Part shown: in pieces, positions 5,704-25,567 of the stretch | How positions within the stretch are numbered: the first letter of the stretch is position 1 | Layout: every line of letters starts with the position of its first letter | Source: an uncultured Bacilli bacterium | Lineage (GTDB): Bacteria; Bacillota_I; Bacilli_A; RF39; UBA660 | Direction of reading: 5' to 3' | Assembly: GCA_944372025.1 (NCBI GenBank) | Contig: CALVYE010000002.1 | Span: forward strand, 1 to 41,122 | Length of the DNA stretch: 41,122 bases | Notes under the pieces: generated by a model | What the model was told of the DNA's origin: nothing | What the model saw: only the letters and a program-made list of their open reading frames with translations | Databases searched by the model: none | Made by a program: the position numbers and the translations under genes

Positions 5704-5731
5704 AAAAAACCTTAGAAAAAACTAAGGTTTT
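5704..5731 (-). terminator. Rho-independent terminator after the coupling-protein gene (left edge of the T4SS/Tad block)
   Basis: Stem AAACCTTAG / CTAAGGTTT (5707-5715 / 5722-5730) with a 6-nt loop and a T-run on the minus strand. Confidence 0.65.
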
Positions 5732-5733
5732 GT

Positions 5734-7854
5734 TTAATCATCTGAAAAGAAATCATCGAAGAATTGATCATCACTAACTTCATCATTAGGTCTATCTTGA
5801 ATACTTTGATGTACTACAGGCTTTTTAACTATGTTATCTGATATAACAGGTTTTTTGTCAATTTCAGGTTTTGATATGACTTCATTAGAAGTTTCTTTAA
5901 CTTCTTCTTTTGGTTGTACTTTAGGAGTACTTTCTTTCTGCTTTTTAGCTATTTCTTCTTTTTCTTTAGCTTCTTCAGCTTCCAATTCAGCTATTTTAGC
6001 ATCTATCTTTTTAACTAATTCATCAACATCAAAATCATCATCTTTATTGTCAGGTGTTGGAAGTCCAAATGGATTGAATGGCATAGGTGGAACATCAGGC
6101 CTTTTAGTATTAGATGAAGGTTCATCTAATATGCTAAAAAGATTATTTTTCTTTTTTTCTTTAACAAATTCTTTTATATCAAATACATTTAACGTTTTCT
6201 TTTGTCTTGTTGGAAATACAGCTTTTTCAAAAGCTTGATTTCCCCAATTCATTTTATAATCTGGAGTAAATTTTGTTTTAAATGGGAATTTTCTTAATCT
6301 AAGAACAATTATTTCAAATTGTTTCATTCTTTGCAAATCACTTACCGTAACAAGTGGGGTTGAAGCTGTTTTATCTTTATCTTTAGATTTTACTTCCCCA
6401 CAAAGTTTACTAATTTCTTCAAGAGCTTGTAATTCTGTACTTATTAGATAAATTATATTACCACAGTTACCTTTTAGGGTTTCTGCGTTTTCTTTTCCAT
6501 AAACTTGGGTTAATTGTGCAAAGTTTTGAATAATAAAATTAAATCTTATCAATCTTGAACGTGCGGCAGTAATCATTGTTGTTACATCTTTTAAAGGTGG
6601 CATGTTAGCAAACTCATCTAGAATAAAGTTCGTTCTAACAGGAAGTTTACCACCATTTTCTTGAGCAACATCAATAAGTGTTTCATATACTTGTTTTAAG
6701 AATATTGTCGCAAGTGAATGATATGTCTTCTTTTCATCTTGAATTACTAAGAAAACTGCAGTTTTTTGTTTACCAATGTCTTGCATATCAAAATCACTAT
6801 AAGAAAGCATTTCAGATAAATTTTCTTTGGAAGAGAATAATTTTATTTTTTGTCTAAATACTGAAAGAATACTTCCTTTAGTGTCTGATGGAGCATTGAT
6901 TGTACTAGATGCATTTACATATGCAGGTTTAGAATGATCTTTCATATTAAAATATTCTTTTATATATGTTGAACCTGCAAACTTTTCTTCTCCATCGGTA
7001 CTCATTAAGTTAATACTATTAATATTTATTTTGCTTTCATCAGTATCTTCAAATAACCCTAAAGATAATCCTGTAAAGTAGTCTGCAGAAGTTTTTTCCC
7101 AAAATGGATCATTACTTTGACTTTTTTCATCATAAAGAATATTTATAGCTAAGTCATCTAAAAGTTCGGTTGCTTTATCTGAATTTCCCATTTTATATAA
7201 TTTATATGGTAATTGGAAAGGGTTCCAAGCATTACCTCTTTGAGGATCACGTAAATTAATTACGATAATATTATATCCTTTACTTTTTAATAAGTTAGCA
7301 GTTTTTTCATATATTTCACCTTTTGGATCGGTAAGAATCATTGATTCACCTTTTTTAGCTAAAGTTTGAACAAGTGGAAAAACAATGGTTTGAGTTTTAC
7401 CAGATCCTGTTGAACCTATAATAAGACTGTGATATTCACTGTCATCAACCCAAATTGTTTTGCCATCATTTATAAGTCCTATACCTGCATATTGACTTGT
7501 AGGTGCGGTAGGATTTACAGGTTTTAGTTCACTTTTTATTTCACTTTCTTTTGCCCATCTAGAATATCCACTTTCTTTTTTATTTGTAGAAAATCCTACT
7601 CCTTTTTCCATACTGAAAAATCTTGATTGTACACTTGCAATACCAAATAATACAAATAGAATAAAAAATACAATTGTAGGTTTTAAATAGTCAGGATTTA
7701 TGAATGCTTCAATTGGATTAAGTCCATATAGTCTTCCTTCTCTTGATAGAGTTGTAATATTTAAAACTCCTATTGCAACTAAATATAAAATTAAAACTAA
7801 ATATAGACAAAAGATTATCCAATCTTTTTTATCAGCAGTAAATTTTAATTTCAT
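5734..7854 (-). CDS. Type IV coupling protein (VirD4/TraG family)
   Basis: Two N-terminal TM helices, Walker A GSTGSGKTQ, and TDPKGE and NAWNPF-type motifs typical of VirD4/TraG. Long charged C-terminal tail ending DDQFFDDFFSDD. GGAGGTG RBS precedes the ATG at 7854. Confidence 0.8.
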   Translation of the reverse strand: MKLKFTADKKDWIIFCLYLVLILYLVAIGVLNITTLSREGRLYGLNPIEAFINPDYLKPTIVFFILFVLFGIASVQSRFFSMEKGVGFSTNKKESGYSRWAKESEIKSELKPVNPTAPTSQYAGIGLINDGKTIWVDDSEYHSLIIGSTGSGKTQTIVFPLVQTLAKKGESMILTDPKGEIYEKTANLLKSKGYNIIVINLRDPQRGNAWNPFQLPYKLYKMGNSDKATELLDDLAINILYDEKSQSNDPFWEKTSADYFTGLSLGLFEDTDESKININSINLMSTDGEEKFAGSTYIKEYFNMKDHSKPAYVNASSTINAPSDTKGSILSVFRQKIKLFSSKENLSEMLSYSDFDMQDIGKQKTAVFLVIQDEKKTYHSLATIFLKQVYETLIDVAQENGGKLPVRTNFILDEFANMPPLKDVTTMITAARSRLIRFNFIIQNFAQLTQVYGKENAETLKGNCGNIIYLISTELQALEEISKLCGEVKSKDKDKTASTPLVTVSDLQRMKQFEIIVLRLRKFPFKTKFTPDYKMNWGNQAFEKAVFPTRQKKTLNVFDIKEFVKEKKKNNLFSILDEPSSNTKRPDVPPMPFNPFGLPTPDNKDDDFDVDELVKKIDAKIAELEAEEAKEKEEIAKKQKESTPKVQPKEEVKETSNEVISKPEIDKKPVISDNIVKKPVVHQSIQDRPNDEVSDDQFFDDFFSDD

Positions 7855-8016
7855 AATTAAAACACCTCCAAAGTTTAACGGCAAATATATTATATCATTT
7901 TAAAGTCAATAAATAAAGAAGTTTATTTTATTATATTCATTATTATAATATTAAATTTACTCAATAAAATAAAAAATTACAAAATTCAACTTGTAATCTT
8001 TCATAAATAATAAGTA

Positions 8017-8760
8017 TTATAATTTACTCGCACTTTTATTTTTAAAATATAAATATAGTGCAGCTCCTCCAATTATAACAATAAATATTCCAGCTACAAA
8101 AATTATAGTGAGGTAATTATTGTTTTGTTTTTCTTCTTCACTAACATAATTTTCATCTTTAGCTAAAATCATTTCTATTTTCTTATTGCCAGCATCTTCA
8201 GCTTCAACATTCCAAATATATTTTTCATCTTCTACTTTATCAGCATTATGACTAACTACTTTGTATGAAGATGTTAGCGTAATTTTTATGTTTTCTAGCA
8301 TTTTTCTAGCATTAAAACAATTACTTGCATCTTTTGCATATATTTGTATTGTTTCTTTACCATTTCCAAAACTAAAATTCTTAAAACATGATCTTACTGC
8401 ATTTGATTCATTATAATCATCTAATGCAAAAGTATAATTATATTTAATTCCTAAAGACTCATTATTACTTATAAGTTCTTGATTATAGTATTCTACACCA
8501 TCCATTTTAATAGGTTCATAAGGATTTCCTCCTCTTTGATAAAAGGAACCTGTTGGCCAATTAACATTTTCCATAACACTAGATCTATATGTTATATCAG
8601 TATGAGGAAAAATAATATCATCCCATTTACTGCTGTCATTTTCAGTAAATTCCACTGTTTCTTCTACACCATTTTCAGTAATATTGACATTATAGTTTGC
8701 TGTACATCCAACAAGAAATATCGAAAGTATTAAACAATAAATTAATTTAGTTTTTTTCAT
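8017..8760 (-). CDS. Lipoprotein with an additional C-terminal TM anchor, T4SS-associated, function unknown
   Basis: Signal peptide with lipobox LVGC, and a hydrophobic helix near the C-terminus (IIFVAGIFIVIIGGAALYLYF). Shares 1 nt with the upstream gene. Confidence 0.5.
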   Translation of the reverse strand: MKKTKLIYCLILSIFLVGCTANYNVNITENGVEETVEFTENDSSKWDDIIFPHTDITYRSSVMENVNWPTGSFYQRGGNPYEPIKMDGVEYYNQELISNNESLGIKYNYTFALDDYNESNAVRSCFKNFSFGNGKETIQIYAKDASNCFNARKMLENIKITLTSSYKVVSHNADKVEDEKYIWNVEAEDAGNKKIEMILAKDENYVSEEEKQNNNYLTIIFVAGIFIVIIGGAALYLYFKNKSASKL

Positions 8761-10682
8761 TATTGACTACCTCCGTTTTTAGGTTCTCTTAAATAAATGA
8801 AACATCTAAACCCACTATATCTACTCGTAGTAATATTGCTTTGATAATTAAAACATCCTGTACCGTTTCCTTCACAATTTTGCATACGTGCTGTGGTATT
8901 TCCACTTACTATACTTCTAGCACTTCTTCCATATAATCCAAAGCCTATTCCAGCTTCGCTTATATCAAACGTTCCATCTGCGTTTACTTTTTCTACAAAT
9001 GCTACATGTCCGTATGGTGCATATGACCAAGAAATTAATGAACCAGCTTTTGGAACAGTACCCGTATTAAATTTTTGAGCATCAGCACTATCACAGAATT
9101 CTCCTCCATTTGGACTCACAGTCCATGTTTCAGTACTGTTAATTGAAGCTAAAAACTCTGCTGCACGTCCTGTAGCATACCATGCACATTCACCTTCATA
9201 TCCAGCAGCAAATCCAGCATTTTGGCTACTATAATAAAATTGATTGGTTCTATTTGGTCTTGTAGTTCTTGATTCGATTGGTGTATCATCACCACCAAAG
9301 CTAAAATTGTATTCTGAATATTCATCTTGTATTTCATAAATGGTTTTTATAATACTTTCAGCTTTTTTTACTAAGGCTTCTCCTTCTAAATCATTACCAT
9401 ACGAATCCTTAAAAGCATCTCTATATGCATTATAAATATAACCGTTTTTATATTTATCAACTTGACTTCTTTCTTCTTCAGTGGGTTCCTTATACGACCA
9501 AAAATCATTTGATATTGTAGATACAGGTGCAGATCCAAGAGTAGTTGGGAGAGAATCTGGTAATACTGCCCCCGCTTCTATTCCTGTTTGTGTTAGACCG
9601 TTTTCTCCAAAATAGTCTCTACTAACATATACATCTATTTTAAGAGGATTATTGGTTTCCATACATGCACCACAAGAATCTATTACCATTGCTTGATATG
9701 ATTCACCATTGATATTAAGAGGAATTACATCTCCGTATTGATAATAAGTAATCCCTTCCATTGAATCCCAATTATATCCTTCCCCTAAAAGATATGTAGT
9801 AGGAGCTGCAACAGCTAAATATTCCATTCCAGTATCAGGGTCTTTATACATCCACCACCCTTTTTCATTGAGTCTAAATCTTTCAGATTTATTCCCATAT
9901 GGGCTCATTCCATCCCATCCTACTTTACCATCTATAAAATTTGTAAGTCTTATTTCACCAGTTGCGCTACTGCTTGTTCCCGTATTGCTTGCTTTTTCAG
10001 CATCTAATTGTTCTTTGCTAGCATAAGTTCCAAAACGTAAATATGCTAAATAATTTGCATTTGATGGAGTTACATTTCCTAAAGGTAATGAGTCCACAGT
10101 TGTATTTATTAAATTTGCGGCTGCATTTAAAAGTGCAAATGGGGGGTTTGCTATTGTTTCATAAACTGATGGATCCGCATTAGAAGGAAGTGAAAAAACT
10201 TTATTTACTTGATGTTCTACAAGCTTTCTCATATCACCTATCATATTACCATATGGAATTGACATTACATCGGCTCTTGCTTCATCAAAATTTTCATAAT
10301 CTTCTCCTAAATCTTGTTCAGCAGGATTTTCACCAATATATAACTGTTTAGTCATTAAGGTAGACATTATGAGAGCGCCATTTATCGTAACTCCTCTATC
10401 TCTATAATATTTTGTTTTATTTTGAAAAGTTCTAACGAAAGCTTCTTCATCATCAGACCATCCTTCACCTTTTAAAAAGTGATCAAGTTTATTAAAAAAG
10501 TCAGCAGTGCCAGTTTGAATTGATTCAACAGCAGAGTTTATTGGCTCTATTATACCCGCTATTGCTATTACAGGTAGAAGCATCATAATTATTGACATAA
10601 GTAAAGCTGCGCCTAATCCAATAATTAAAATTTTTCTACCTGTTTTTGATTTTAAAGCAGTGCCTATCAATTTTAAATGCAT
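8760..10682 (-). CDS. Membrane-anchored cell-wall hydrolase with a C-terminal CHAP domain (VirB1 functional analogue of the CwlT/TcpG/PrgK class)
   Basis: N-terminal TM helix. CHAP-type Cys and His motifs (GECAWYATGRA ... GHVAFVEKV). The central segment GDVIPLNINGESYQAMVIDSCGAC resembles a 3D/RlpA-like barrel, with low confidence. Confidence 0.7.
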   Translation of the reverse strand: MHLKLIGTALKSKTGRKILIIGLGAALLMSIIMMLLPVIAIAGIIEPINSAVESIQTGTADFFNKLDHFLKGEGWSDDEEAFVRTFQNKTKYYRDRGVTINGALIMSTLMTKQLYIGENPAEQDLGEDYENFDEARADVMSIPYGNMIGDMRKLVEHQVNKVFSLPSNADPSVYETIANPPFALLNAAANLINTTVDSLPLGNVTPSNANYLAYLRFGTYASKEQLDAEKASNTGTSSSATGEIRLTNFIDGKVGWDGMSPYGNKSERFRLNEKGWWMYKDPDTGMEYLAVAAPTTYLLGEGYNWDSMEGITYYQYGDVIPLNINGESYQAMVIDSCGACMETNNPLKIDVYVSRDYFGENGLTQTGIEAGAVLPDSLPTTLGSAPVSTISNDFWSYKEPTEEERSQVDKYKNGYIYNAYRDAFKDSYGNDLEGEALVKKAESIIKTIYEIQDEYSEYNFSFGGDDTPIESRTTRPNRTNQFYYSSQNAGFAAGYEGECAWYATGRAAEFLASINSTETWTVSPNGGEFCDSADAQKFNTGTVPKAGSLISWSYAPYGHVAFVEKVNADGTFDISEAGIGFGLYGRSARSIVSGNTTARMQNCEGNGTGCFNYQSNITTSRYSGFRCFIYLREPKNGGSQ

Positions 10683-10709
10683 TTTTGATCACCCTCTTAC
10701 ATCAGGCTT

Positions 10710-12494
10710 TTACAATCCTCCACGTTCACCAAATGATTCTAGTTCTTGTGGTGTGACTACTATATTAATTCTCATACGTCTACTACCACATATAAATAAG
10801 GCTTCCCCTTGGTTATATCTTTTAATACTATCTTTTTCATTATCATTTAAATCTATTAATTTAGCTAAGTCATCAACTGCTTGTTTTCTAAGTCCCATTA
10901 CTAGATAATAAGATGCATTATCAAAGATTGCTTTACCTTGAGTTATTACAGCAGGATCAGAGAAGTCAGTTGGTTGTTGTGTACTTATTATTGTTCCTGA
11001 ATTATACTTTCTAGCACGTCTTTGAACCTGTGCTAGGAAGTCCGCACCTAAAGTATTATTTCCAGCAAGTAAAATATGTGCTTCATCTACATAGAATGCT
11101 GTATTTTTACTTTTATCAAGACATAGTCCCCAAGCATATTTTAAAACGTTAAAGAACAATGCGTTTTTAATATTTGCATCAGCATTCATTAGTTCTTTTA
11201 TATTAAATACTATAAATTCACTATGAAGAGTTATAGTTGTATGTCCGTCGAAATAGTATTTTAATTCGTTAGTTAATGGTCTAATCTTAATTTCTAGTTT
11301 TTCCATTATTTCTCTTTCATGAGTTCTTTCTTGCATTGCAAGTAATCTACCTGTTATTGTTGCATACACATCTCTAAAAGTTGGAAAATCTTCGCTTCTA
11401 AATCTTGCAAAGTCTGTATTGAAATCAATTCCAAATCTTCTATATGTGTCTTGAACAACTTCAGAGAATAGATTTAATACATCTTCTGTAATATCAGGTG
11501 AATAATATTTCATGAAAGCTTTAATATTTTGTAGTGCATTTGTAAGTACTGTATATCCTAGGCCTTGTCCACTTTCATCATCAGCATCTAGAATAATTTC
11601 TAGTGGATTTATCATACCATATTCTCCACCTTTACCAAGGTCAATGAAATCACCATCATAAAGTTTGGTCATATCTTCAAGTTCACCTTCAGGATCGATA
11701 GCGACAATTTGGTGAGAATTTCTTATATGGCTTCTTAGTAACACTTTAGCAGCAGTTGATTTACCACTACCAGAAGTACCAAGGATAATCATATTAGCAT
11801 TATTTCTATTGTGCTCTTTTTTAATTTGATATAAAAATTGGTTAAATAGGATAACTCCACCAGAGAAATCTATACCAAGAAGTGTAGATAAACCAGGATC
11901 TTTAACACTATCAAATATAAATGGATACATAGCTGACATAGTTGCAGAAGGCATAGGTGTACCTATTCTTTCTTCAATATCTTGTTTTGGGAAAATAGGT
12001 ATTATTGATTTTAAAACTTTTTCTTGTTCAAAGTTTAAAATTACCGCACTCATTTCCATTGATTCAATGAAATTTTTAACTTGAACTTTCTTTTGTTCAA
12101 GACCTTCTTTAGAATCTGCCGTAAGCATTAAATGCATTTGAAAATCGAAGATTTTTGCTTGAGAAGCTGCTAGGTTTTGAATAAAGTATTCTAAAGATTC
12201 ATAGTCTTGTCTAATCCTTTCTTGGATTGTAATATCTTTTTCATTAGAATATCTATTCTTTAAATCTGCAATTTCTTTATTAAGCATTTTTCTTAATATA
12301 TCAAAAGCAATAGGAATATGTTTGATAACTACTTTTATACCAGACATATTAGTCAAATCAGAAAGATAACCAGGACTTATATATTTTGGATAAGAAATTA
12401 TGGTCATTATAGTGGCATATTTACCACTTATTACGAAATCACCAGGATTAAATTGAAGACCTTTAGGTGCTAATTGGGCTTTTAAACGCATCAT
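10710..12494 (-). CDS. VirB4-family conjugation ATPase, C-terminal approximately 3/4 (ATPase body)
   Basis: Walker A GTSGSGKST and Walker B-like AFYVDEAH. The N-terminal GKYATIMTIISYPKYISPGYLSDL segment is typical of Gram-positive VirB4 (TrsE/Orf16/PrgJ class). The start overlaps the upstream stop (ATGA). Confidence 0.8.
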   Translation of the reverse strand: MMRLKAQLAPKGLQFNPGDFVISGKYATIMTIISYPKYISPGYLSDLTNMSGIKVVIKHIPIAFDILRKMLNKEIADLKNRYSNEKDITIQERIRQDYESLEYFIQNLAASQAKIFDFQMHLMLTADSKEGLEQKKVQVKNFIESMEMSAVILNFEQEKVLKSIIPIFPKQDIEERIGTPMPSATMSAMYPFIFDSVKDPGLSTLLGIDFSGGVILFNQFLYQIKKEHNRNNANMIILGTSGSGKSTAAKVLLRSHIRNSHQIVAIDPEGELEDMTKLYDGDFIDLGKGGEYGMINPLEIILDADDESGQGLGYTVLTNALQNIKAFMKYYSPDITEDVLNLFSEVVQDTYRRFGIDFNTDFARFRSEDFPTFRDVYATITGRLLAMQERTHEREIMEKLEIKIRPLTNELKYYFDGHTTITLHSEFIVFNIKELMNADANIKNALFFNVLKYAWGLCLDKSKNTAFYVDEAHILLAGNNTLGADFLAQVQRRARKYNSGTIISTQQPTDFSDPAVITQGKAIFDNASYYLVMGLRKQAVDDLAKLIDLNDNEKDSIKRYNQGEALFICGSRRMRINIVVTPQELESFGERGGL

Positions 12495-13177
12495 GATGGC
12501 AACACCGTATTAAATGTAGTACTTCTTCCATTATTTAGGAAGTTATCAAGTAATACTCTTAAGTCTTCATTTGTGGTTTGCATAGCAACTAATCCTGTAC
12601 CCGTAAATCCGCTTATTAAATCCCTTAATTTCTTTTGCATTACATCATCCTTCTTTTCTTGGAACAATAAATAATACTCAGTATCAACTACATCATTATC
12701 AATGAACAGTTGGGCTTTATCCAAATCTTCAGTTATTAGCTTTCTAATTTTTGGATTTGGAGTATTATTATAAAGTAATTGTAATTGTGAAATATAAAGT
12801 GTTATATCTACAGGTCTATCTGCCACTATAATCCAAAATTCATAATCTATTGTGTTATATAAATTTCTTAGAGAAATTAAAATATTAGCTTGTGATTCTG
12901 GATCAAGTATAAAGATATTTCTAGGAGTAATTTTAACACCTGTAACTTTCCATTTATTTTCCAAAATTATTGTTCCATTTTGTATATTTTCTACAGTTAT
13001 CCAATTTTCTGCATACTTTCTTGCTTGTTCATCTGTCTTACTAACAGGTTTTGGTGTTGGTCTTGGTGTTGAAGCTTGATTTGTTCTTGGCGCACCACTT
13101 TGTGATTGTGGCGCATTGTTATTTTGCGGTTGAGTAACAGTTGTCCTTGGTTGTTGATTATTGGTTATAATAGCCAT
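12491..13177 (-). CDS. VirB4 N-terminal module encoded as a separate ORF, with a Q/P/N-rich disordered leader
   Basis: WITVENIQNGTIILENKWKVTGVKITPRNIFILDPESQANILISLRNLY... matches the pattern at the N-terminus of full-length Gram-positive VirB4 proteins. AAGGAGGTG RBS present. 228 + 594 aa gives 822 aa, about the full-length VirB4 size. Confidence 0.55.
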   Translation of the reverse strand: MAIITNNQQPRTTVTQPQNNNAPQSQSGAPRTNQASTPRPTPKPVSKTDEQARKYAENWITVENIQNGTIILENKWKVTGVKITPRNIFILDPESQANILISLRNLYNTIDYEFWIIVADRPVDITLYISQLQLLYNNTPNPKIRKLITEDLDKAQLFIDNDVVDTEYYLLFQEKKDDVMQKKLRDLISGFTGTGLVAMQTTNEDLRVLLDNFLNNGRSTTFNTVLPS

Positions 13178-13210
13178 AATCTAAACACCTCCTTATTATT
13201 CTTTATATAT

Positions 13211-13528: not shown

Positions 13529-13545
13529 TTATATCACCCTTTTTC

Positions 13546-16993: not shown

Positions 16994-17007
16994 CACATTA
17001 CAATACT

Positions 17008-17756: not shown

Positions 17757-17849
17757 TAACCATCAATCCTTTCACTCTTATTATTAACAATTATATTGTA
17801 TAATATTTATTTAAATTATTCAACATTTTGTTTAATTATTTACATTATT

Positions 17850-18644
17850 TTACATACCAGTATTTTGTAACATCATTAACATTGATACCATAAGTAATAC
17901 TACTACTCCTCCACCTGTTACTCCAAGCATTACCATAGTTTTACTTTGCATTTTTTCTAGACGTTCCTTATATTTTTGCTCACGCGCTTTATTTTGCAAT
18001 GATGAAACAGTTTTTGAAAGTAACAATAATTGTTCTTGTTTATTTTCTTGGATACCAAGCCCAAGTCTATATAAAAGTCTCATCATACGCATTGAATCTC
18101 TTACGGGATAAGTTTTTGCGAATTCCATATATGGATCTATTGAAGAATCTCCAGCTTCAATTTTAGCAATTAAGGTTCTAAGTCCTTGTTTAAATATGTC
18201 TGGAGCATCATCAACAGACTTAGCAAGCGCAACAGGTACGGTATAATGTTGAACTAGTACTTCTATAGTTTTTAAATAGTATGGTAATAATAAATCAATA
18301 TCATGTAAATGTTTTTTGTAATATGATTTTAAATTAAAATATTGTGATTTAAAAATATATCCTGCAATTAATCCGCATATTAATATATTTAAAAAACTAA
18401 TATTAGTAATAAATAGTATAAACATTATTCCAAAGATTAATACTGCATTTTTAATTCTTTTGTTGAATAAAACATCTGGATTTACATTTTCACCGTATTT
18501 AGCCATAACTAGAAAGTCATAGTCATTTTCTTTTAATAGTTTTACATACACACTATTATCTTTAAAAAATTGATTGGTATTTACTGAACCATTAACGAAT
18601 AATATTATAAATATTATTGCGGCTACCACTAATATTTCCCACAT
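17850..18644 (-). CDS. TadC-like (T2SSF/GspF-fold) pilus platform protein
   Basis: N-terminal TM helix, a TM pair, a cytoplasmic helical domain and a C-terminal TM helix. Its start shares 1 nt with the TadB-like stop. Confidence 0.55.
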   Translation of the reverse strand: MWEILVVAAIIFIILFVNGSVNTNQFFKDNSVYVKLLKENDYDFLVMAKYGENVNPDVLFNKRIKNAVLIFGIMFILFITNISFLNILICGLIAGYIFKSQYFNLKSYYKKHLHDIDLLLPYYLKTIEVLVQHYTVPVALAKSVDDAPDIFKQGLRTLIAKIEAGDSSIDPYMEFAKTYPVRDSMRMMRLLYRLGLGIQENKQEQLLLLSKTVSSLQNKAREQKYKERLEKMQSKTMVMLGVTGGGVVVLLMVSMLMMLQNTGM

Positions 18645-19546
18645 TATTCAGCACCTACATTCTCATTATAATATTTTTCACCATTAAGTAAAAATCCACT
18701 ATTGAATAATAATATCGCATGAAGTGTCAACTGAACATACCATAAATCTAACATTTTTACATATGAATCTACACCTAATAATAATTGTATAACTGCTACA
18801 AGCAAGTATAACATTATTCCATACATTAAAAATCTTTTATGGAAGTCTTGTCTATCCATTCTATCTCTATAAACACCTTCTACAAGAGTATCTATGTCGA
18901 GTGACATATTATCTAGAGAATCTGTAATATCATGTGCACCTTCTTTGGTAACTTGTAAAAATAATTGATGCATGTTTTTAACTATGTAGTATGGATATTT
19001 AATATTCATATATTCTATTGAATCATCTATTTGTCCGTTTTCATATGCCATTTCTACCATTTTTTTAACATCACTTAATACAGGATCTTCTAAAACTCCT
19101 GATGCAGCAACTCCTTCAATGGCTTTTACGAAAGATTTTGTTGTTTGATACTCCATTATTGTATTAGTGGCATATACTTGAATTTGTTCAAAGATAAATT
19201 CACTATATACTCTTTTATATCTTAAATATGCAAGATATGGTATTACAGCTACTGCTATTAGAGCATAGATTATAGACCATATTATACTATAGAAATATAA
19301 ATATGAAATACCACCAGCTACACCAGCAAATATTACTACTTGAGTTATATATTGTCTAGGTGTATAGTCAGCTTTTAGATCTCTGACTTTCTTTCTCATT
19401 TCTTTATATGAATATGGTGCTATCTTTTCATATACTACTTCTAATTTTGCATTGACATATTTATAAAGGCTATCTCCTTTTTTAGAACGGTATGTTATTA
19501 TGAATAATGCAATAAATGCAATTATAACAAATATAAGAAAATCCAT
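18644..19546 (-). CDS. TadB-like (T2SSF/GspF-fold) pilus platform protein
   Basis: Same topology class as the TadC-like gene. Immediately downstream of the CpaF-like ATPase. Confidence 0.55.
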   Translation of the reverse strand: MDFLIFVIIAFIALFIITYRSKKGDSLYKYVNAKLEVVYEKIAPYSYKEMRKKVRDLKADYTPRQYITQVVIFAGVAGGISYLYFYSIIWSIIYALIAVAVIPYLAYLRYKRVYSEFIFEQIQVYATNTIMEYQTTKSFVKAIEGVAASGVLEDPVLSDVKKMVEMAYENGQIDDSIEYMNIKYPYYIVKNMHQLFLQVTKEGAHDITDSLDNMSLDIDTLVEGVYRDRMDRQDFHKRFLMYGIMLYLLVAVIQLLLGVDSYVKMLDLWYVQLTLHAILLFNSGFLLNGEKYYNENVGAE

Positions 19547-19559
19547 AATATCACCTACT

Positions 19560-20642
19560 TTACATTATTATTTCTTCTTCTTGAACTTCTGGAGCCATAA
19601 CAGATTTTGGTAAAGTTATTCCCTGTGCATCTAAATATCCAATTAAATATTTGGTTGGATTACTTCTAAAAATTCTTCCATCAGAAGTTTTTTTGTAAAT
19701 TGCATGATGTCCAGGTTTATTATCTTCGGTAACAAAGAACTCTGTAACTTCAACAATTTCTCTTTGAAATCTATTATATTCTTTTGAGAAGTAACCTCTA
19801 ATATGAACACCTAATTGTACATATCTATGAATTGAGTTTAAGAATTGTTCAATATCTTGATTTGATTCAAGCAAACTATACATACGACTAGGTATAGATT
19901 CGGCTTTATCAGAGTGAATTGTAGACAATATGTTATGTCCTGATGAAATAGAGTTTCTTACTGCCATAACTGCTTCTGCACTTCTGACTTCGGATAATAA
20001 TATCCATTTAGGGTTTTGTCTCATACATGTTACTAATACATCTGAATATGAAGCAATGTTATTTGTTTTCATCGCAACTATATCTCTATGTGGAAAGATT
20101 CTGTCTAAGTGTAATTCTAAGGTGTCTTCTATAGTAATTAGTTTTTCATTTTCATAAGTATGAGAAGCTAAATACTTAACAAACTCTGTTTTACCAGATC
20201 CAGTTTCCCCACTTACAATAATATTACAGTGTCCATGAACGCATTCTATTAGAAAATCATGTACATCCATCGTTACATAATTTTCATTTAATAGTTTATC
20301 TTTATTAAGTCTTATTTTAGCAGGGGTTTTTCTTAATACTGCAGCAATTCCATTTCTTGCGATTGAGTCATGAACAAAGTTAAGACGAAGTTCTGAACCT
20401 TCGGCATCAAGAAAAGGTTCTGCCATATTAAAAGTCTTACCCATTGCGTTAGAACATTGGAATGCAAGTTTTTCCATTAAAGCATTGTTAACTTCAGGAT
20501 TTTCAATTCGATAAACTCCCTTTGTTAAAGATTTTAACCACAGATTTCCACCATTACTATATGATATATCAGTTATATCATCGTTATCTAAGTATTGTTG
20601 TAGAGGTCCAAAATCTATATGTTCAAATACATTATCATTCAT
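19560..20642 (-). CDS. CpaF/TadA-type secretion ATPase (T2SSE/VirB11 superfamily)
   Basis: Walker A SGETGSGKTE, Asp-box ITIEDTLEL, Walker B ILLSEVRSAEA, His-box STIHS. Confidence 0.8.
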   Translation of the reverse strand: MNDNVFEHIDFGPLQQYLDNDDITDISYSNGGNLWLKSLTKGVYRIENPEVNNALMEKLAFQCSNAMGKTFNMAEPFLDAEGSELRLNFVHDSIARNGIAAVLRKTPAKIRLNKDKLLNENYVTMDVHDFLIECVHGHCNIIVSGETGSGKTEFVKYLASHTYENEKLITIEDTLELHLDRIFPHRDIVAMKTNNIASYSDVLVTCMRQNPKWILLSEVRSAEAVMAVRNSISSGHNILSTIHSDKAESIPSRMYSLLESNQDIEQFLNSIHRYVQLGVHIRGYFSKEYNRFQREIVEVTEFFVTEDNKPGHHAIYKKTSDGRIFRSNPTKYLIGYLDAQGITLPKSVMAPEVQEEEIIM

Positions 20643-20644
20643 TA

Positions 20645-21517
20645 TTATTCTTCCTCAGTATTATTTTGAATTTCGTCAGTAGAATCATCTGTTAATTGAT
20701 CTTCTGGAACATTAACTGTTCTATCTTCAATATATTGCCTTAAATATGAGCTTGTTACTTCTACTGCTCCCTCATATTCATCATCACTAATAGATTCTAC
20801 AACAGGTACTGGTATTAACTCTACATTTAAGTAATTTGCTTTTCTAAGAAGTAAGTGTAAATCTTCACTAACACCAAAAATTAGTGTAGATGGTGTCCTA
20901 TTTTCTTCAGTATTTTCAAATACATCTCTACCACTTGAATCTAAAACCGCTAAGACTTTTACATCTTTAAGTAACATTCCAATCATTGGCTTACCAGTAT
21001 CATCTTCTGCTTTCATATAAATATTTACATATGTATCATCCATTATAGCATTACCATATGTGTCAGCAAAGTTAATAGAAAATGCATATGGTATTTGTCC
21101 CTCATCAATTTTTAGTAAAACTGAAGATGGTATTTTTGAACGGTCTACAACGTTAACATTTCTTATTAGAACTGAACCTTGTGGTATTAATGAATTTATA
21201 TTCGCATATGCCCCATTTTCAAAAGCACTATTAAGTTCAGCAGCACTTCTTATTACTGACGCTCCAGCTGTATTAGAGCCCATCATTTTATCATACATTA
21301 CTTTTGCAATTTGTATTGTTTCAACCATATCTGTTGTTATCCTAGTTCTAGGTTGAATGTTTTGTTTAGCAACAACAACTGATATTTGTTCAACTTGTTG
21401 ATTTATTCTCCAATTATATCCAAAGTAAAGTATAGCTATACCAACCAAAGTCCCTAATATTGTTACTGTGTTTTTATTAGTAATAAATTTTTTTAATGAA
21501 GCAACAAAATTGTTCAT
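20645..21517 (-). CDS. CpaB/RcpC-like Flp pilus assembly protein (SAF domain)
   Basis: N-terminal TM helix followed by the SAF-like VVVAKQNIQPRTRITTDMV. AGGAGG RBS precedes the ATG at 21517; the track start is a GTG two codons upstream. Confidence 0.55.
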   Translation of the reverse strand: MNNFVASLKKFITNKNTVTILGTLVGIAILYFGYNWRINQQVEQISVVVAKQNIQPRTRITTDMVETIQIAKVMYDKMMGSNTAGASVIRSAAELNSAFENGAYANINSLIPQGSVLIRNVNVVDRSKIPSSVLLKIDEGQIPYAFSINFADTYGNAIMDDTYVNIYMKAEDDTGKPMIGMLLKDVKVLAVLDSSGRDVFENTEENRTPSTLIFGVSEDLHLLLRKANYLNVELIPVPVVESISDDEYEGAVEVTSSYLRQYIEDRTVNVPEDQLTDDSTDEIQNNTEEE

Positions 21518-21600
21518 AAACACTTCCTCCTATCATAATATAATAATTATAACATAATTATTTTTTTTAAGCGATATATTTTTTTGATTTTTATTATAAA

Positions 21601-21631
21601 AATAGAACAATACACAAAATATTGTTCTATT
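21601..21631 (-). terminator. Hairpin overlapping the stop of the 134-aa gene
   Basis: TAGAACAAT / ATTGTTCTA stem with a 9-nt loop and a T-rich tail on the minus strand. Confidence 0.4.
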
Positions 21632-22031
21632 CTATATTAGTAGTTTCTAAAATTGCATCTATTCTGTTAACTATATCAAATTGATCTCCTGTAAAGCTAA
21701 ACACATTACTTTTTGCTCCCACACTTAAACTAACTTTCGGAGGCATTTCTACTATATCGAAAAAATTAATATCATATGTTTTCGTAAATCCAGCACTTTC
21801 AGCATATCTTCTAATAAAGTTTTCTACAAATTTTTCTTTATCTATTGCTAATTTATCATATTTTCTATAATAGGCAATATCTACAGAATCTATCATTGCT
21901 GCTTCTGTAATTTCTTTTACTAGATAATAATTTTGATCATTTGTACTTGTTATGTCTTGAAATAGAAATACTATTGCTATACCTAAAATTCCTATTACAA
22001 TTATAAAATATCCCCAAAATGACTCTTTCAT
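21627..22031 (-). CDS. Prepilin-like or bitopic small protein (MKESFWG leader plus hydrophobic helix)
   Basis: 134 aa. The leader resembles those of the 85-aa and 146-aa proteins. The gene abuts the stop of the 934-aa gene. Confidence 0.35.
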   Translation of the reverse strand: MKESFWGYFIIVIGILGIAIVFLFQDITSTNDQNYYLVKEITEAAMIDSVDIAYYRKYDKLAIDKEKFVENFIRRYAESAGFTKTYDINFFDIVEMPPKVSLSVGAKSNVFSFTGDQFDIVNRIDAILETTNIE

Positions 22032-24836
22032 TTAATCACCATCTTCTGAAAAATCTCCAATTTTTTTTCTTCTCTCATTATTGCTTGGCAGTTTAATATT
22101 ATCTATTTTCCCTAAATTAGCACTATCAGCGTTTGAATTGCAATTTGTTCCATTCAAGAGACATGTTAAAAAATTACTTGTTCTTTCAACACTGTTATAT
22201 TCTGTAGATAAAGTATCCCAATCAAGATACCCTTTATTACTATCTTGCAAATCATTATATTTTTGAATTCTAGATATAAGATCAGGAGTTAATTTAATTG
22301 AATATATTGGATCACTATAAACTGTATCTCCTTTTATATTTGTACTTGTTCCTGTAATGTATTCTTCAACTTTTGTATTACGAGAATTCAATGCTTGTCC
22401 AAACCAATTTGGTCCAATATCTCTATTATTTGGGAATGGGTTAGTAAGAGATATAGGTCTAAAATAATATGGAGTATTATTAACCTTTATAGGCGGAGTT
22501 TCATCATCAGGAGGGTCAGGATCGTCATCATCAATACAAGTGCCATCTTTAATACAATTTGCAACTAAATATGAACAAGTATATGGTTTATTTCCAGAAT
22601 TTATTTCTCCTAATAACCCACCATTGTTGATACTTATTTCGAAATCATAATATCCTGATTCATCATTTACACTTGTATATATTTTATTTCCTCCATCTAA
22701 ATAATTTGATGTAATTATTGGTTTTTTACCTGTATAATTATTATAACTGTCATCTCCTCCTACTTGATTTATATAATATTTAGGCAACATCATATTATAT
22801 GATACATCAAAACTAATTGATTGAATTACATTGTAAGAATTATAATTGTAAACTGGATAAGATCGATATCTTCCATAACGATCATAATAGGATTCATAAT
22901 GATCAATGCATCGATAACTACGTCTTCTTGTGCTTATTTCAGGAATTTGAGATTTAAGATCAGTAAGTATGACAGTAGTTTCATCTCCATTACTATTATT
23001 ATCATTGTTGTCATTTGCAAACATATATATATATTCTTTTGTATTTCCTACACCTGGCAATATTTGCTTAAAAGTTATTGTTTGATTTTTAAGGTTATTA
23101 ATATCAATACGATTATATGCTGTTTCCATTGCCTCATTGTAATCATCAATATCATCCTCTAAGTTATCACACCACTTGTACCCTCCTCCTGAATATGTAT
23201 TTGAAGGTTCATTACCAGTAATTGAAACAGTATCCACTATTTTTAGATTATATTCAAAACCTCGACCAGCATCTATCATTGGATAAGCTTTATTTTTATT
23301 TGGATAATTTGTAGAAGTAATCTCAAATGTTTCTGTAACTTGTATTTCTGAATTACTCTCTGTGTATTCTCTTTCCCATGGTTGATTTTTGCAAGTTCGA
23401 TTTCTCCCATCATCATCATATTTTTTTATTTCATCATCTGAAGAATCACATACTTTGTTCCAATTTGAATTTATTTGTTGTGTTGTTATAGGGCAACAAA
23501 TTAAAGCGTTTTTTTCAAAAGTTTCCTCGTCTGCACTTTCACAACATTCTTCTCTGTGAGAAGAAAAATAATCGGCATTATTACATTTATTTTTTTCAAC
23601 TATAATATTTTTGCATCTAGATGTGTTTTTATATTGATTTGTTTTACAACAATGATTCGAATCATTTATATTAACATTCCAACTACAACTTTTTTTACAT
23701 CTAGAATCATTTTGGTATTCTGGATAATTACAACAATGTGATTGATCAGATCTATCAACGTTCCATTTGCATGAAAATTCATATCCTGAACATTTTTGGT
23801 TGTATTGTTCTTTTATAAAAGGATTATTAAGATATGATGCAAATGTTTTTAATGTTGGAAGTTTTTCTCCATTAACGTATATATTATAATCAATTTCAGG
23901 ATTTGGATTACAACATAATTCTTGCATATTCCAAACAGTAGAATTCCATACATTTGGATCATTTATTGTTGCTGCACCATTTGAACCATCACTTCCACAA
24001 CATGTTTCAGGATATTCATAGCAACATTCATTTTCGTGTTTATATGCATAGCTTTGATCCTTACATTGATTGTAATTTGGATCATCATATTCAAATACAG
24101 CTACAAAAGGTACCCAATAATGATATACTCTAGATACATCTTCTCCTCCCCCACTTATTCCATTCCATCCTAATCCAGCCCAAGCCGCATTATCTCCCAT
24201 TGCTGTTAATCTTCCTACATATACATTGTATGAAAATTCATTATTAGCTTTATCCAGTCCAATTTTTGATACTGTATAGTTTTCAACCTTCCAAGTATTC
24301 CAAAAGTCAAATGTACTTTGATTTAAAGGATCAGGTTTACTATTATTAAAATTTAATGCTTCTATACTTATAAGTTCTACATTATTTTTATCTTGTAATT
24401 GAGTAGGTAATGGGTCACTTACATTGTATGATAAATCCATTAGTGGACACACTTGAATTCCAAGTCCTCCAGCTACTTCCCAGTAACCATCTCTTCCTAC
24501 CCAAGCATCGATTCTTCCTGAATCATAAAAATACATTCTTATTCTTTTACCATTATCTATTGATTCTGTTTTATATTTAGCTCCATCTACTCCCATTCGT
24601 CTTAATTCTTCTATGGCACATTTATTCATACCAGTATCTGATGAACCAGCATTTGTATCATTCTTACAAAATGATTGTGCACCAGAATAATGTGATCCAT
24701 CAAATCTTCCAAAAGTAGGCAATTCACTACTTGGACATGTACTTCCCCAAGCATCATAACTTCTAGCATATATTTTAAATGGAAACATTAGCAAAATAAA
24801 TAAACCTAAAAAAACTATATTTATTTTATTTTTCAT
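22032..24836 (-). CDS. Large secreted cysteine-rich protein (candidate adhesin or tip protein), function unknown
   Basis: Type I signal peptide. The Cys-rich core holds seven CC dipeptides and a tandem repeat of about 29 aa. Has an acidic/Pro linker DDDDPDPPDDETPP. No LPXTG motif and no C-terminal TM helix. Confidence 0.6.
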   Translation of the reverse strand: MKNKINIVFLGLFILLMFPFKIYARSYDAWGSTCPSSELPTFGRFDGSHYSGAQSFCKNDTNAGSSDTGMNKCAIEELRRMGVDGAKYKTESIDNGKRIRMYFYDSGRIDAWVGRDGYWEVAGGLGIQVCPLMDLSYNVSDPLPTQLQDKNNVELISIEALNFNNSKPDPLNQSTFDFWNTWKVENYTVSKIGLDKANNEFSYNVYVGRLTAMGDNAAWAGLGWNGISGGGEDVSRVYHYWVPFVAVFEYDDPNYNQCKDQSYAYKHENECCYEYPETCCGSDGSNGAATINDPNVWNSTVWNMQELCCNPNPEIDYNIYVNGEKLPTLKTFASYLNNPFIKEQYNQKCSGYEFSCKWNVDRSDQSHCCNYPEYQNDSRCKKSCSWNVNINDSNHCCKTNQYKNTSRCKNIIVEKNKCNNADYFSSHREECCESADEETFEKNALICCPITTQQINSNWNKVCDSSDDEIKKYDDDGRNRTCKNQPWEREYTESNSEIQVTETFEITSTNYPNKNKAYPMIDAGRGFEYNLKIVDTVSITGNEPSNTYSGGGYKWCDNLEDDIDDYNEAMETAYNRIDINNLKNQTITFKQILPGVGNTKEYIYMFANDNNDNNSNGDETTVILTDLKSQIPEISTRRRSYRCIDHYESYYDRYGRYRSYPVYNYNSYNVIQSISFDVSYNMMLPKYYINQVGGDDSYNNYTGKKPIITSNYLDGGNKIYTSVNDESGYYDFEISINNGGLLGEINSGNKPYTCSYLVANCIKDGTCIDDDDPDPPDDETPPIKVNNTPYYFRPISLTNPFPNNRDIGPNWFGQALNSRNTKVEEYITGTSTNIKGDTVYSDPIYSIKLTPDLISRIQKYNDLQDSNKGYLDWDTLSTEYNSVERTSNFLTCLLNGTNCNSNADSANLGKIDNIKLPSNNERRKKIGDFSEDGD

Positions 24837-25489
24837 AGTATCCTCCTTTTTCTTTTAATAGTTCTAAAAATTATAATTAATATTATTATAAAGATAATTA
24901 CTACGATTGAAATTATTAAAATCATATTTATATTTAAGGGATTATTTGTTTCATCTATATTATTTTCTACAATAGTTTGTTCTTCTTTTATTAAACTTTT
25001 TTTATATTCTGATAGTTCTTTTTGAAATGTGTCTTCATTTATTATTCCTTGATAGTCTGGATTACAAAGTTGAAACTCGTTATAGTCTATATTTTCGCAT
25101 TCTTCTCTATCAGCAAATAAATTATATTTTTTTATATAAATATTTTGATCGGTAGATATATCTAAATCACAGTTTATTTCATTACTAAAAAGAAAACTAA
25201 ATTTGTATGATCTTCCTCCTTGATAATTTCCACCTGTTACAGTATTATTATTACTAATATACTCTGTACCTCCTGTATCATAAATTATTATATCGTTAGG
25301 TACATTATAAAATGTTATAGAAAAATTATTATTTCCGAGATGATTAAATTTATATTTTATACTTTTAATTTTATTATATATTTCATTTGTTACTTCTTTT
25401 GAACACGTTTGTGCAAAAGTATTTACTGGTATTAAAAATAACATTAATAAAATCAAAAAATTAAATATTCTTTTTTTTAAATAATTCAT
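24833..25489 (-). CDS. Secreted protein with a C-terminal TM anchor, function unknown (first gene of the block)
   Basis: Signal peptide (…VNTFAQ), a C-terminal hydrophobic helix and a basic tail RTIKRKRRIL. ATGA overlap with the next gene. Confidence 0.5.
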   Translation of the reverse strand: MNYLKKRIFNFLILLMLFLIPVNTFAQTCSKEVTNEIYNKIKSIKYKFNHLGNNNFSITFYNVPNDIIIYDTGGTEYISNNNTVTGGNYQGGRSYKFSFLFSNEINCDLDISTDQNIYIKKYNLFADREECENIDYNEFQLCNPDYQGIINEDTFQKELSEYKKSLIKEEQTIVENNIDETNNPLNINMILIISIVVIIFIIILIIIFRTIKRKRRIL

Positions 25490-25517
25490 ACTACCCTCCT
25501 ATGATATATTCATATTA

Positions 25518-25526
25518 ATTATAACA
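25518..25526 (-). promoter_or_regulatory. Extended -10 element (TGTTATAAT) upstream of the first gene of the T4SS/Tad block
   Basis: The minus-strand sequence ...ATGTGTTATAATT... lies between the upstream terminator and the AGGAGGG RBS of the 218-aa gene. I saw no good -35 element. Confidence 0.35.
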
Positions 25527-25540
25527 CATAAAATATAATA

Positions 25541-25567
25541 AAAAACAGCTATTTGGCTGTTTTTTAT
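25541..25567 (-). terminator. Rho-independent terminator (right edge of the T4SS/Tad block)
   Basis: AAAAACAGC / GCTGTTTTT stem with a 6-nt loop and T-runs. Confidence 0.65.

Follow-up and report, generated by a model that had tools for sequence, protein, structure and literature searches.

Gene content and borders of the locus

We investigated a block of genes on the metagenome contig CALVYE010000002.1. Its source is an uncultured gut lineage of low GC content, listed by NCBI as Mycoplasmatota or 'Bacilli bacterium'. The whole stretch analyzed, 41,122 nt, is called the window. Its list of open reading frames (ORFs) shows 19 minus-strand ORFs in series and in one direction at 5734-25489, and these join a VirB4/VirD4 type IV secretion system (T4SS) to a Tad-like module with a CpaF-family ATPase and a likely membrane platform. 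An earlier reading of the window, here called the original prediction, had proposed this junction, and hidden Markov models (HMMs), profile comparisons and synteny supported it. The same holds for its description of about 20 co-oriented minus-strand genes between two hairpin terminators, for which the count is 19. The distances between neighboring genes along the block are -4, 0, 103, 2, 13, -1, 93, 50, 98, 82, 103, 17, 17, 33, -4, 27, -1 and 132 nt, and stop and start codons overlap or abut at five junctions. Genetic code 4 was ruled out, since TGA terminates 6 of the 42 ORFs, which indicates the standard bacterial code. Both terminators were read from the sequence:

~25566-25539, minus strand: upstream border terminator, hairpin and T-run (AAAAAACAGC-CAAATA-GCTGTTTTTT); it is the terminator of the preceding VanY-like gene, just ahead of the first gene of the block
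~5730-5704, minus strand: downstream terminator, hairpin and T-run 3' of VirD4 (AAACCTTAG-TTTTTT-CTAAGGTTTTTTT)

For comparison we scanned genome contigs for VirB4, with one genome per species, and obtained 459 stretches that encode a VirB4 relative. The locus comparisons below refer to the best 80 of these 459 (VirB4 74-94% identical), each centred on VirB4 with up to 10 kb on either side; single loci are given by L numbers. Nearly all of the 80 are metagenome-assembled genomes (MAGs) of uncultured gut organisms, most of them titled Bacilli, Tenericutes, Mollicutes or Bacillota bacterium, and they also include Ca. Fimihabitans, Ca. Pelethosoma and UBA660. We take Ca. Fimihabitans and Ca. Faecisoma to fall within, or close to, the GTDB order RF39. 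Both stand under Mycoplasmatota incertae sedis in the NCBI taxonomy. Eight loci (L011, L028, L036, L043, L051, L060, L068 and L089) are titled Methanobacteriaceae, Muribaculaceae or Bacteroidaceae MAGs; these are probably mis-binned, because they carry the same low-GC Bacilli-type locus with VirB4 at 74-94%.

The T4SS module

Judged by its proteins, the window contains the VirB4 and VirD4 expected of a Gram-positive (MPF-FATA/pLS20-type) conjugative T4SS. Putative VirB6-like, VirB3-like and VirB1-like (hydrolase) components accompany them, the VirB3-like protein being assigned by conserved position only. The genes of this module are, in the order of transcription and all on the minus strand:

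16042..16404, minus strand: VirB2-like T4SS pilin paralogue (PF18895, T4SS_pilin, 20.6 bits, below the curated cutoff)
15543..15938, minus strand: VirB2-like T4SS pilin paralogue of the same family as the 16042..16404 gene
13546..15525, minus strand: VirB6-like polytopic membrane protein with a long C-terminal extension (NF045889, Mbov_0396, 31 bits, cutoff 70)
13211..13528, minus strand: VirB3/PrgI-like small membrane protein (position only, directly upstream of VirB4)
12491..13177, minus strand: VirB4 N-terminal domain as a gene of its own (NF045975 model positions 98-279)
10710..12494, minus strand: VirB4 ATPase domain (NF045975, 349 bits; NF045971, 171 bits; PF19044)
8760..10682, minus strand: cell-wall hydrolase with a C-terminal CHAP domain, VirB1 role (PF05257, 55.6 bits)
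8017..8760, minus strand: lipoprotein with lipobox LVGC and a C-terminal membrane anchor (from the translation; family present in 50 loci)
5734..7884, minus strand: VirD4 type IV coupling protein with an acidic low-complexity C-terminal tail (PF02534, 193 bits; PF10412, 87 bits; NF045973)

VirD4, the split VirB4 and the CHAP hydrolase, all named in the original prediction, were confirmed by HMMs. VirD4 scored 304 bits against NF045973 (conju_CD1115, cutoff 250), which places it in the CD1115 family, and the ATPase part of VirB4 scored 85 bits against TIGR00929. The stop codon of the N-terminal VirB4 gene overlaps the start codon of the ATPase gene (ATGA). This split is kept in 80 of 80 loci, from which we conclude that it is a real conserved feature and not a sequencing error. 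Orthologues of the N-terminal gene carry PF26593 (TraC-like), and the gene showed no similarity to gene 51 of pLS20-type plasmids. The type of hydrolase is exchanged among relatives, with Peptidase_M23 plus lysozyme in other species.

The small proteins at 15543-16404 are VirB2-like by family membership: 56 of the 122 members of their family match T4SS_pilin (PF18895; best E 3.6e-8), so that this earlier assignment holds as well, and related loci carry between one and five such genes. The family profile showed no similarity to the TrbC/VirB2 protein of plasmid pZB18. The VirB6-like assignment gained from the orthologues, which carry PF19597 (TrbL_4), although the match of the window protein itself to Mbov_0396 stays below the cutoff. 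Within the VirB6-like gene we observed a 45-nt tandem duplication (14245-14334, 91% identical) in a Gly/Ala-rich stretch of the C-terminal extension. For the proposed PrgI/VirB3-like protein the position is conserved (directly upstream of VirB4 in 79 of 80 loci), but the curated HMM scans gave no family match. No VirB8-like (NTF2-fold) protein was recognised in the window. The lipoprotein was considered for this role and rejected, as its family profile matched neither the pLS20-type VirB8-like protein nor any sequence in PDB.

The Tad-like module

Upstream of the T4SS genes the block contains a putative secretion motor with the following genes:

21627..22031, minus strand: DUF5411 protein, N-terminus MKESFWG followed by a hydrophobic helix (PF17424, 175 bits)
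20645..21523, minus strand: CpaB/RcpC-like (SAF-type) protein (PF16976, 22.7 bits; TIGR03177, 28 bits; both below cutoff)
19560..20642, minus strand: secretion ATPase of the CpaF/TadA-VirB11 superfamily (PF00437, T2SSE, 93.5 bits)
18644..19546, minus strand: TadB-like, divergent GspF/T2SSF-type platform membrane protein (hhalign to plasmid counterparts)
17850..18644, minus strand: TadC-like second platform membrane protein (hhalign to syntenic plasmid genes)

The proposed CpaF/TadA ATPase was confirmed as a member of the T2SSE superfamily, and its scores against the NCBIfam models for VirB11, TadA-conjugal and TrbB were similar and far below the cutoffs. In a sequence search of PDB the closest solved structure was CpaF (67 bits, residues 4-258), followed by FlaI (57) and VirB11 (56). 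For the two platform proteins, direct HMM evidence failed while profile-profile comparison and synteny supported the original labels. Neither window protein had a Pfam T2SSF match, and their family profiles had no PDB sequence match; T2SSF was also absent from a Pfam scan of 10 distant full-length TadB-like relatives drawn from a library of 1.84 billion proteins. A tblastn search of plasmids led to a Priestia koreensis plasmid gene annotated as 'type II secretion system F family protein', which the TadB-like profile matched with 98.3% (E 1e-14) in hhalign; the Exiguobacterium counterpart was matched with 98.0%. These plasmid proteins reach T2SSF at sub-threshold level (Priestia 24.2 bits at a gathering score of 25.2; Exiguobacterium 20 bits). 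The AlphaFold (AF2) model of the TadB-like protein has a predicted local distance difference test (pLDDT) score of 72, and the cytoplasmic domain of EpsF/GspF was its only specific Foldseek match (probability 0.82, template modeling score 0.58 on the target, E = 2). The TadC-like profile matched only its syntenic counterparts, the genes that follow the T2SSF-like gene (Priestia 97.0%, Exiguobacterium 94.5%), and had no detectable similarity to the TadB-like protein in an hhalign paralogy test or to gene 39 of pLS20-type plasmids. On these comparisons the two proteins are likely a TadB/TadC platform. The CpaB label shows the same pattern, with HMM scores below the cutoffs but a tblastn match to the Priestia SAF/RcpC gene region (E 9e-18). 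The 'prepilin-like protein' of the original prediction is the DUF5411 protein, and its short leader ending in Gly does resemble type IV prepilins. TadZ was not found in the window.

A system of CpaF ATPase, PilC/GspF-like protein and DUF5411 protein has been predicted computationally in Clostridia (PMC9523054). On the Priestia koreensis plasmid (NZ_CP061869.1) the order is Ig-like surface protein, DUF5411, SAF/RcpC, ParA-like, CpaF/VirB11, T2SSF-like, a 279-aa membrane protein and DUF4320. Such DUF5411-associated operons have the order of the window module (large surface protein, DUF5411, SAF/CpaB-like protein, CpaF-like ATPase, T2SSF-like protein, second membrane protein), and homology between the Priestia and window modules was found for CpaB, ATPase, TadB and TadC. 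In contrast to the window, Priestia-type modules stand alone, with no T4SS genes within the ~9 kb shown on either side, and have ParA/TadZ-like and DUF4320 genes. These sequence relationships lead us to group the module, as a divergent member, with the DUF5411-associated Tad-like systems of Firmicutes.

Pilin candidates and surface proteins

The remaining five genes of the block encode small pilin candidates and surface proteins:

24833..25489, minus strand: p218, secreted, with a C-terminal membrane anchor, ribosome-binding site AGGAGG upstream, hypervariable between species (from the translation)
22032..24836, minus strand: p934, secreted protein of 934 aa with 34 Cys, candidate surface adhesin, hypervariable (from the translation)
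17499..17756, minus strand: 85-aa candidate major pilin, MKEATG/ELNMTVVTIV..., with a small Cys-containing C-terminal part (N-terminal motif)
17008..17448, minus strand: p146, candidate minor pilin, leader MREAVG, long N-terminal helix and three-stranded sheet (motif and model)
16487..16909, minus strand: p140, membrane-anchored cadherin-like beta-sandwich protein (PF12733, 29 bits)

The N-terminus MKEA[AT]GE[AL]N[ML]TV with its following hydrophobic helix is conserved in 37 relatives of the 85-aa protein, and the N-termini of the p146 family read M[RK]E..G. A short leader ending in Gly, as in type IV prepilins, is common to the 85-aa, p146 and DUF5411 families. By leader and topology we infer that the 85-aa and p146 proteins are pilin-like. 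The AF2 model of p146 (pLDDT 84) shows a 45-residue helix (3-47), a second helix (53-66) and three strands. The more specific labels given earlier failed. The 85-aa protein had no match to Flp_Fap or any other family and does not fit the Flp processing motif G/XXXXEY, as it has no EY. Likewise, p146 was tried as TadE, DUF4320 or a pilin fold and rejected (hhalign 8% and 4%, no Pfam match, Foldseek noise only). Since neither Flp, TadE nor DUF4320 was matched and no fold relative was found, the labels Flp and TadE are unsupported.

The surface proteins vary most. No curated family matched p218 or p934, and both are barely recognisable in those relatives in which the region upstream of DUF5411 is visible. 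By tblastn, p218 was not detected in the 80 VirB4-centred loci, although most of these end short of its position; L005 and L093 gave weak matches. Where p934 stands in the window, relatives and plasmid modules have a large surface protein. p140 was found in only two of the 80 relatives and is specific to the clade of the window; most relatives hold a different gene, fam9, at this position. fam9 encodes a 332-aa cytoplasmic protein between the p146-like and VirB2-like genes of 51 of the 80 relatives (e.g. L014:3725-4708 and L017:3798-4799) and is missing in the clade of the window. It has a degenerate 'GIKNVT.QSGATT' motif, is TadZ-like by position and had no Pfam or PDB match.

Conservation of the locus and search for mobility genes

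We next investigated how far the block is conserved. The VirB3-like, N-terminal VirB4 and VirB4 ATPase genes are present in 79-80 of the 80 loci, the VirB6-like gene in 75 of 80 and VirD4 in 58 of the 59 loci with at least 7.5 kb of downstream sequence. Tad motor genes lie upstream in the same orientation in 44 of the 56 loci with at least 9 kb upstream. ATPase relatives of 74-91% identity fall into more than 120 protein clusters on contigs of up to 375 kb, and on contigs of up to 238 kb the block adjoins the same PedC-like/TrmL/thioredoxin genes. Median identity to the window follows a gradient from cytoplasm to surface: VirB4 76%, ATPase 75%, TadB-like 63%, VirD4 61%, TadC-like 57%, VirB3-like 48%, CpaB-like 46%, VirB2-like 37-43%, p146 33%, VirB6-like 31% and lipoprotein 25%. 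The locus proteins have diverged about as far as the products of rpsP, the KH-domain gene, cdsA and rseP in the flank. In pairwise comparisons, VirB4 identity is correlated with RmuC identity (r = 0.79) and with that of the TadB-like protein (r = 0.89), and neither value was reached in any of 999 permutations. Mean pairwise identity is higher for VirB4 (82.8%) than for RmuC (75.3%); this tighter conservation across many uncultured gut species suggests an important cell-cell or cell-environment function.

The absence of a relaxase, integrase and prepilin peptidase from the block, stated in the original prediction, agreed with our HMM scans: relaxase, integrase, recombinase, replication, partition and A24 peptidase families had no match among the locus proteins and the scanned ORFs of the flanks. 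In the related loci we scanned representatives of the recurrent gene families and found no relaxase within 10 kb of VirB4 in 80 genomes, and no A24 peptidase. The original prediction had also raised the possibility of a relaxase and integrase just outside the window; both flanks of the window consist of housekeeping genes, and the related genomes gave no relaxase within the distance scanned. Scans of the whole window detected neither a tRNA gene nor an Rfam match, and direct repeats do not bracket the block. Conservation, synteny, co-divergence and this lack of tRNA genes, Rfam matches and bracketing repeats speak for a vertically inherited, constrained chromosomal machine and against an integrative conjugative element (ICE).

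Two classical type IV pilin-like genes with the N_methyl motif MKNKKGFTLVELL lie at 33522-35054 (minus strand), between cdsA and the KH/rpsP genes. One of the proteins (387 aa) carries an ALK/LTK glycine-rich domain (PF12810, 164 bits), and relatives keep the same arrangement (L010). Pilin-like genes of this class imply a PilD/ComC-type peptidase elsewhere in the genome.

Comparison with known systems

For better evaluation of the locus we compared it with plasmids. Using tblastn, relatives of the ATPase were found on 650 plasmid records, of which 364 are typed as conjugative, mostly from Bacillus, Listeria and Enterococcus. The operon of pBatNRS213 (OK210094.1), a pLS20-family plasmid, contains, in this order, the adhesin Tie, two small genes, a 'VirB11-like ATPase', proteins of 267 and 245 aa and a DUF4320 protein. 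It continues with tiny membrane proteins, VirD4, an extended VirB6, proteins of 103 and 192 aa, VirB4, VirB8 and VirB1, and then with auxiliary relaxosome proteins, relaxase and primase. pZB18 (NC_016967.1) and a Paraclostridium plasmid (NZ_CP079739.1) show the same order and a VirD4 of the CD1115 family. The TadB-like profile matched the 267-aa protein, which is the equivalent of pLS20-type gene 38, with 97.7% (E 2e-12), and the pZB18 counterpart with 90.6% in hhalign. The gene just upstream of the ATPase in pLS20-type plasmids gave sub-threshold DUF5411 matches (E 6e-5 and 6e-3). The Tad-like module of this family comprises genes for a DUF5411-like protein, the CpaF/VirB11 ATPase, a TadB-like protein, another membrane protein, a DUF4320-like protein and several tiny membrane proteins; it spans 10402-14300 in L095 (pBatNRS213), 12284-16800 in L097 (pZB18) and 12401-17200 in L098.

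Like the window, the pLS20 family has a large surface adhesin followed by DUF5411-like, CpaF/VirB11 ATPase, TadB-like, second membrane protein and small membrane protein genes, then VirB6-like and VirB3-like proteins, a protein of ~190-195 aa and VirB4, with VirD4 of the same NCBIfam family CD1115. The original prediction of an 'unusual architecture' was therefore overstated, as the same composite precedes VirD4, VirB6 and VirB4 on these conjugative plasmids of Bacillus, Enterococcus and Paraclostridium. Window and plasmids also differ. Identity is low (ATPase 32%, VirD4 27%, VirB4 24%), and VirD4 stands at the end of the block in the window but before VirB6 in the plasmids. The plasmids carry relaxase, auxiliary relaxosome proteins, primase and replication genes, whereas the window locus is chromosomal and has none. 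Unlike the plasmids, the window has CpaB-like, 85-aa pilin and T4SS_pilin-type genes, and no VirB8-like gene was recognised in it. In a 2021 paper on the pLS20 family, gene 37 is a 'putative VirB11', genes 38-41 are of unknown function, and Gram-positive conjugative elements are stated to form no conjugative pili (PMC8557374). It appears that the Tad-like module of these operons was not recognised in the published descriptions we found, and searches of the literature gave no useful report that connects RF39-type lineages, or pLS20, with a Tad module or with this T4SS.

The T4SS of Patescibacteria (PMC12102498; Southlakia epibionticum, PMC12857230) is likewise a monoderm MPF-FATA-type system, chromosomally fixed throughout its lineage, in organisms said to have reduced genomes. 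It lacks a relaxase and has divergent VirB2-like pilins in arrays. Going by its genes, the lineage of the window appears to share this lineage-wide chromosomal conservation of a relaxase-less system with VirB2-like arrays. Patescibacteria belong to a different phylum, and their T4SS is essential in one species. In contrast to the window with its Tad-like module, PMC12102498 contains no mention of Tad or T2SSE and one of VirB11, for a diderm-type locus. Among NCBIfam models the top scores for the window VirB4 (349 bits) and VirB6-like protein (31 bits) came from the Mycoplasma ICE models Mbov_0397 and Mbov_0396, both under the respective cutoffs (590 and 70). The host lineage is related to Mollicutes (NCBI taxonomy). 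Mycoplasma ICEs differ in that they are mobile, whereas the window locus is fixed and its VirB4 split, and their conjugation genes as listed in PMC12857230 include no CpaF-type ATPase; they also mediate mycoplasma chromosomal transfer (MCT; PMC12857230). The IncI R64 thin pilus and PAPI-1 (PMC12857230) are examples in which a VirB4/coupling protein system and a type-IV-filament machine are encoded side by side and the filament machine assists mating or is needed for it; they differ from the window in their diderm hosts, type IVb pili and mobile, relaxase-bearing elements.

Interpretation and alternative explanations

Taken together, our findings suggest that the block is probably a chromosomally fixed, vertically inherited, relaxase-less and domesticated relative or descendant of a Gram-positive conjugation apparatus of the pLS20 type that now serves a function of the host. 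Among the options listed in the original prediction, a domesticated machine fits best, given the conserved chromosomal site in many species and the co-divergence with housekeeping genes. As no relaxase or oriT-processing module accompanies the machine in the genomes examined, it seems no longer to serve the transfer of a mobile element, which points to co-option by the host. The retained VirD4 argues for export rather than uptake, and the missing relaxase for a substrate other than a self-transmissible element.

Several observations weigh against this reading. The platform proteins fail Pfam T2SSF, and their link to this family is transitive, via plasmid proteins just under the gathering score. 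The pilin candidates have neither the Flp motif nor a pilin family or fold match, and a prepilin peptidase is not represented in the locus. The relaxase search in relatives spanned 10 kb on either side of VirB4, so that a relaxase could lie elsewhere in those genomes, and the organisms are uncultured. Other points concern the linkage of the two modules. A promoter-like site with 11 of 12 matches precedes the first VirB2-like gene, which means that the T4SS could be a separate transcription unit. In four loci (L021, L075, L086 and L088) the T4SS has no adjacent motor genes, and housekeeping genes (NusA/IF2-like and Mur ligase-like by N-terminal sequence) lie directly upstream. About eight further loci, six of them clear (L042, L047, L050, L053, L073 and L079), have YfhO or glycosyltransferase genes where motor genes would be expected. 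On the Hadza contig L093 a full Tad-like module, the pilin, p146-like and fam9 genes are followed by unrelated genes and no T4SS, and the module also stands alone on the Priestia plasmid and in Clostridia (PMC9523054). From the separated loci we conclude that rearrangement can part the two modules. The physical coupling proposed in the original prediction is therefore common (44 of 56 loci) and presumably ancestral, but not obligate.

The alternative that survives best, which we nevertheless consider unlikely, is that two independent systems lie side by side by descent, namely a Tad-like pilus for adhesion during colonisation and a separate chromosomal T4SS, with no cooperation between them. 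The stand-alone modules and unlinked genomes just described speak for it, as do promoter-like sites at 16477-16449 and 16962-16934, between both modules. Against it, the same juxtaposition occurs in pLS20-type operons of three distant genera, and such compact operons seem unlikely to keep unrelated genes. The divergence of TadB-like protein and VirB4 is correlated, and a scan of the block found no terminator between the modules. Moreover, the pilin gene cluster stays with the T4SS in several genomes whose motor genes are not adjacent: the same loci of the YfhO/glycosyltransferase type keep p146-like, fam9 and VirB2-like arrays beside the T4SS, and four of them also the pilin gene.

Somewhat less probable, in our judgment, is that the ATPase is a true VirB11 with T4SS-specific membrane partners. 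There would then be no Tad filament, and the module would energise the channel or extract the VirB2-like proteins or small pilins for a T4SS pilus. The homologue is called VirB11 in the pLS20 papers (PMC8557374), and VirB11 gave the top NCBIfam score (113 bits). The VirB2-like genes, the lack of a direct T2SSF match, the missing Flp motif and the missing peptidase would also fit. On the other hand, all NCBIfam scores are far below their cutoffs and close to one another (TadA-conjugal 97 bits, TrbB 95 bits), and the closest solved structure, CpaF, is covered over a longer part that includes the N-terminal domain. The module is also homologous gene for gene to the stand-alone plasmid module (SAF/RcpC, ParA-like, CpaF, T2SSF-like), which has no adjacent T4SS genes. 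Canonical VirB11 systems are not known to have a GspF-like partner.

A machine for DNA uptake (competence) or DNA release, comparable to ComB of H. pylori, archaeal Ced or the Neisseria gonococcal genetic island, with the Tad-like pilus capturing DNA, appears improbable. Tad pili do mediate transformation in Micrococcus luteus (PMC4322843), the window proteins matched the CedB and CedD models weakly, and the machine is under strong constraint in a lineage with a reportedly reduced genome (PMC11680825, on RF39). However, VirD4, the receptor for export substrates, is nearly always kept, while ComB and Ced work without it (PMC12857230), and the separate classical type IV pilin (ComG-like) genes of the window could serve competence.

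The reading as an ICE or an integrated plasmid, with relaxase, integrase and attachment sites beyond the window, is largely refuted and very improbable: the families of the locus are conjugation families, a PDDEXK_2 transposase-like gene is nearby and a serine recombinase lies upstream in L008, but the flanks are housekeeping genes with upstream neighbors conserved across species, the locus co-diverges with RmuC, relaxase, tRNA gene and bracketing repeats were not found in the scans above, and the nearest plasmid VirB4 is only 28.5% identical.

For the domesticated conjugation apparatus we propose a mechanism. Gene content, module homologies, conservation, synteny, co-divergence and the lack of a nearby relaxase were observed; filament formation, cooperation between the modules, direction of export and substrate are inferred. 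Driven by the ATPase and platform, the short-leader pilins would assemble into a filament or a pseudopilus that spans the wall, and this structure together with the variable surface proteins would make or stabilise contact with another cell. The hydrolase would open the wall, VirB4, VirB6, VirB3 and the VirB2-like proteins would form a channel, and VirD4 would recruit a cytoplasmic substrate for export. Candidate host functions are protein delivery and relaxase-independent or trans-acting DNA exchange. The idea of a mating pilus is put forward as a hypothesis. A tentative and rather doubtful extension is that the Tad-like filament and VirB2-like pilins link the cell to a partner and the VirD4-fed channel exchanges macromolecules without a relaxase, as a lineage-defining organelle. 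If this were true, the locus could correspond, on the side of Firmicutes, to the essential T4SS of Patescibacteria, or it could be a 'mating' system built into the chromosome, like mycoplasma chromosomal transfer. The 'VirB11' region of pLS20-type plasmids would then encode a conjugative filament of Gram-positive bacteria that has gone unrecognised.

Two kinds of system are already known, the pLS20-type T4SS operon and the co-opted chromosomal T4SS, and this locus is a variant of both. Together with its plasmid relatives it forms a class of monoderm T4SS loci with CpaF/VirB11-type ATPase, GspF-like platform, pilin-like and VirB2-like genes. According to a 2025 review, VirB11 homologues are universally missing from Gram-positive T4SSs, as are VirB2 pilins except in Patescibacteria (PMC12857230); our findings contradict this general statement and the one on pili in PMC8557374. 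Through the homology to pLS20, Bacillus subtilis offers a system in which the idea can be tested.

Neighboring genes

Past VirD4, relatives carry Rhodanese, RmuC, DUF2238, VTT, RNase R and UvrD genes and the clade of the window YunB and DUF4015; no relaxase was seen among these downstream genes in the window or in relatives. Rhodanese and RmuC follow VirD4 directly and in the same orientation in 46-56 related loci (L015-L090), ~7.5-9 kb downstream of VirB4. This adjacency is probably only synteny, although a recombination gene is a notable neighbor for a machine of the DNA-transfer type.

Upstream, two genes stand between the locus and the TrmL cluster and are not found there in L008-L010. One is the PDDEXK_2 (PD-(D/E)XK family) transposase-like gene (27161-28219, minus strand, 103 bits), which has C-terminal GI(K/E)QGI repeats, and the other encodes a 510-aa VanY/Cu_amine_oxidN1 protein (25575-27107). 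The large serine recombinase (Resolvase/Recombinase/Zn_ribbon_recom) of L008 (940-2583) also occurs in L009, where as in L008 it lies upstream of and overlaps cotE beside rpsP. In L008 it is ~7 kb upstream of the locus, and it resembles the sporulation type (SpoIVCA-like) and not an element integrase. Further away, four tandem paralogous genes for secreted proteins of ~195 aa (38450-40989, minus strand) have camelysin/TasA-like N-termini and a weak Peptidase_M73 match, and a 178-aa membrane protein follows at 37828-38364. By their sequence, the tandem genes may be a TasA-like fibre locus.

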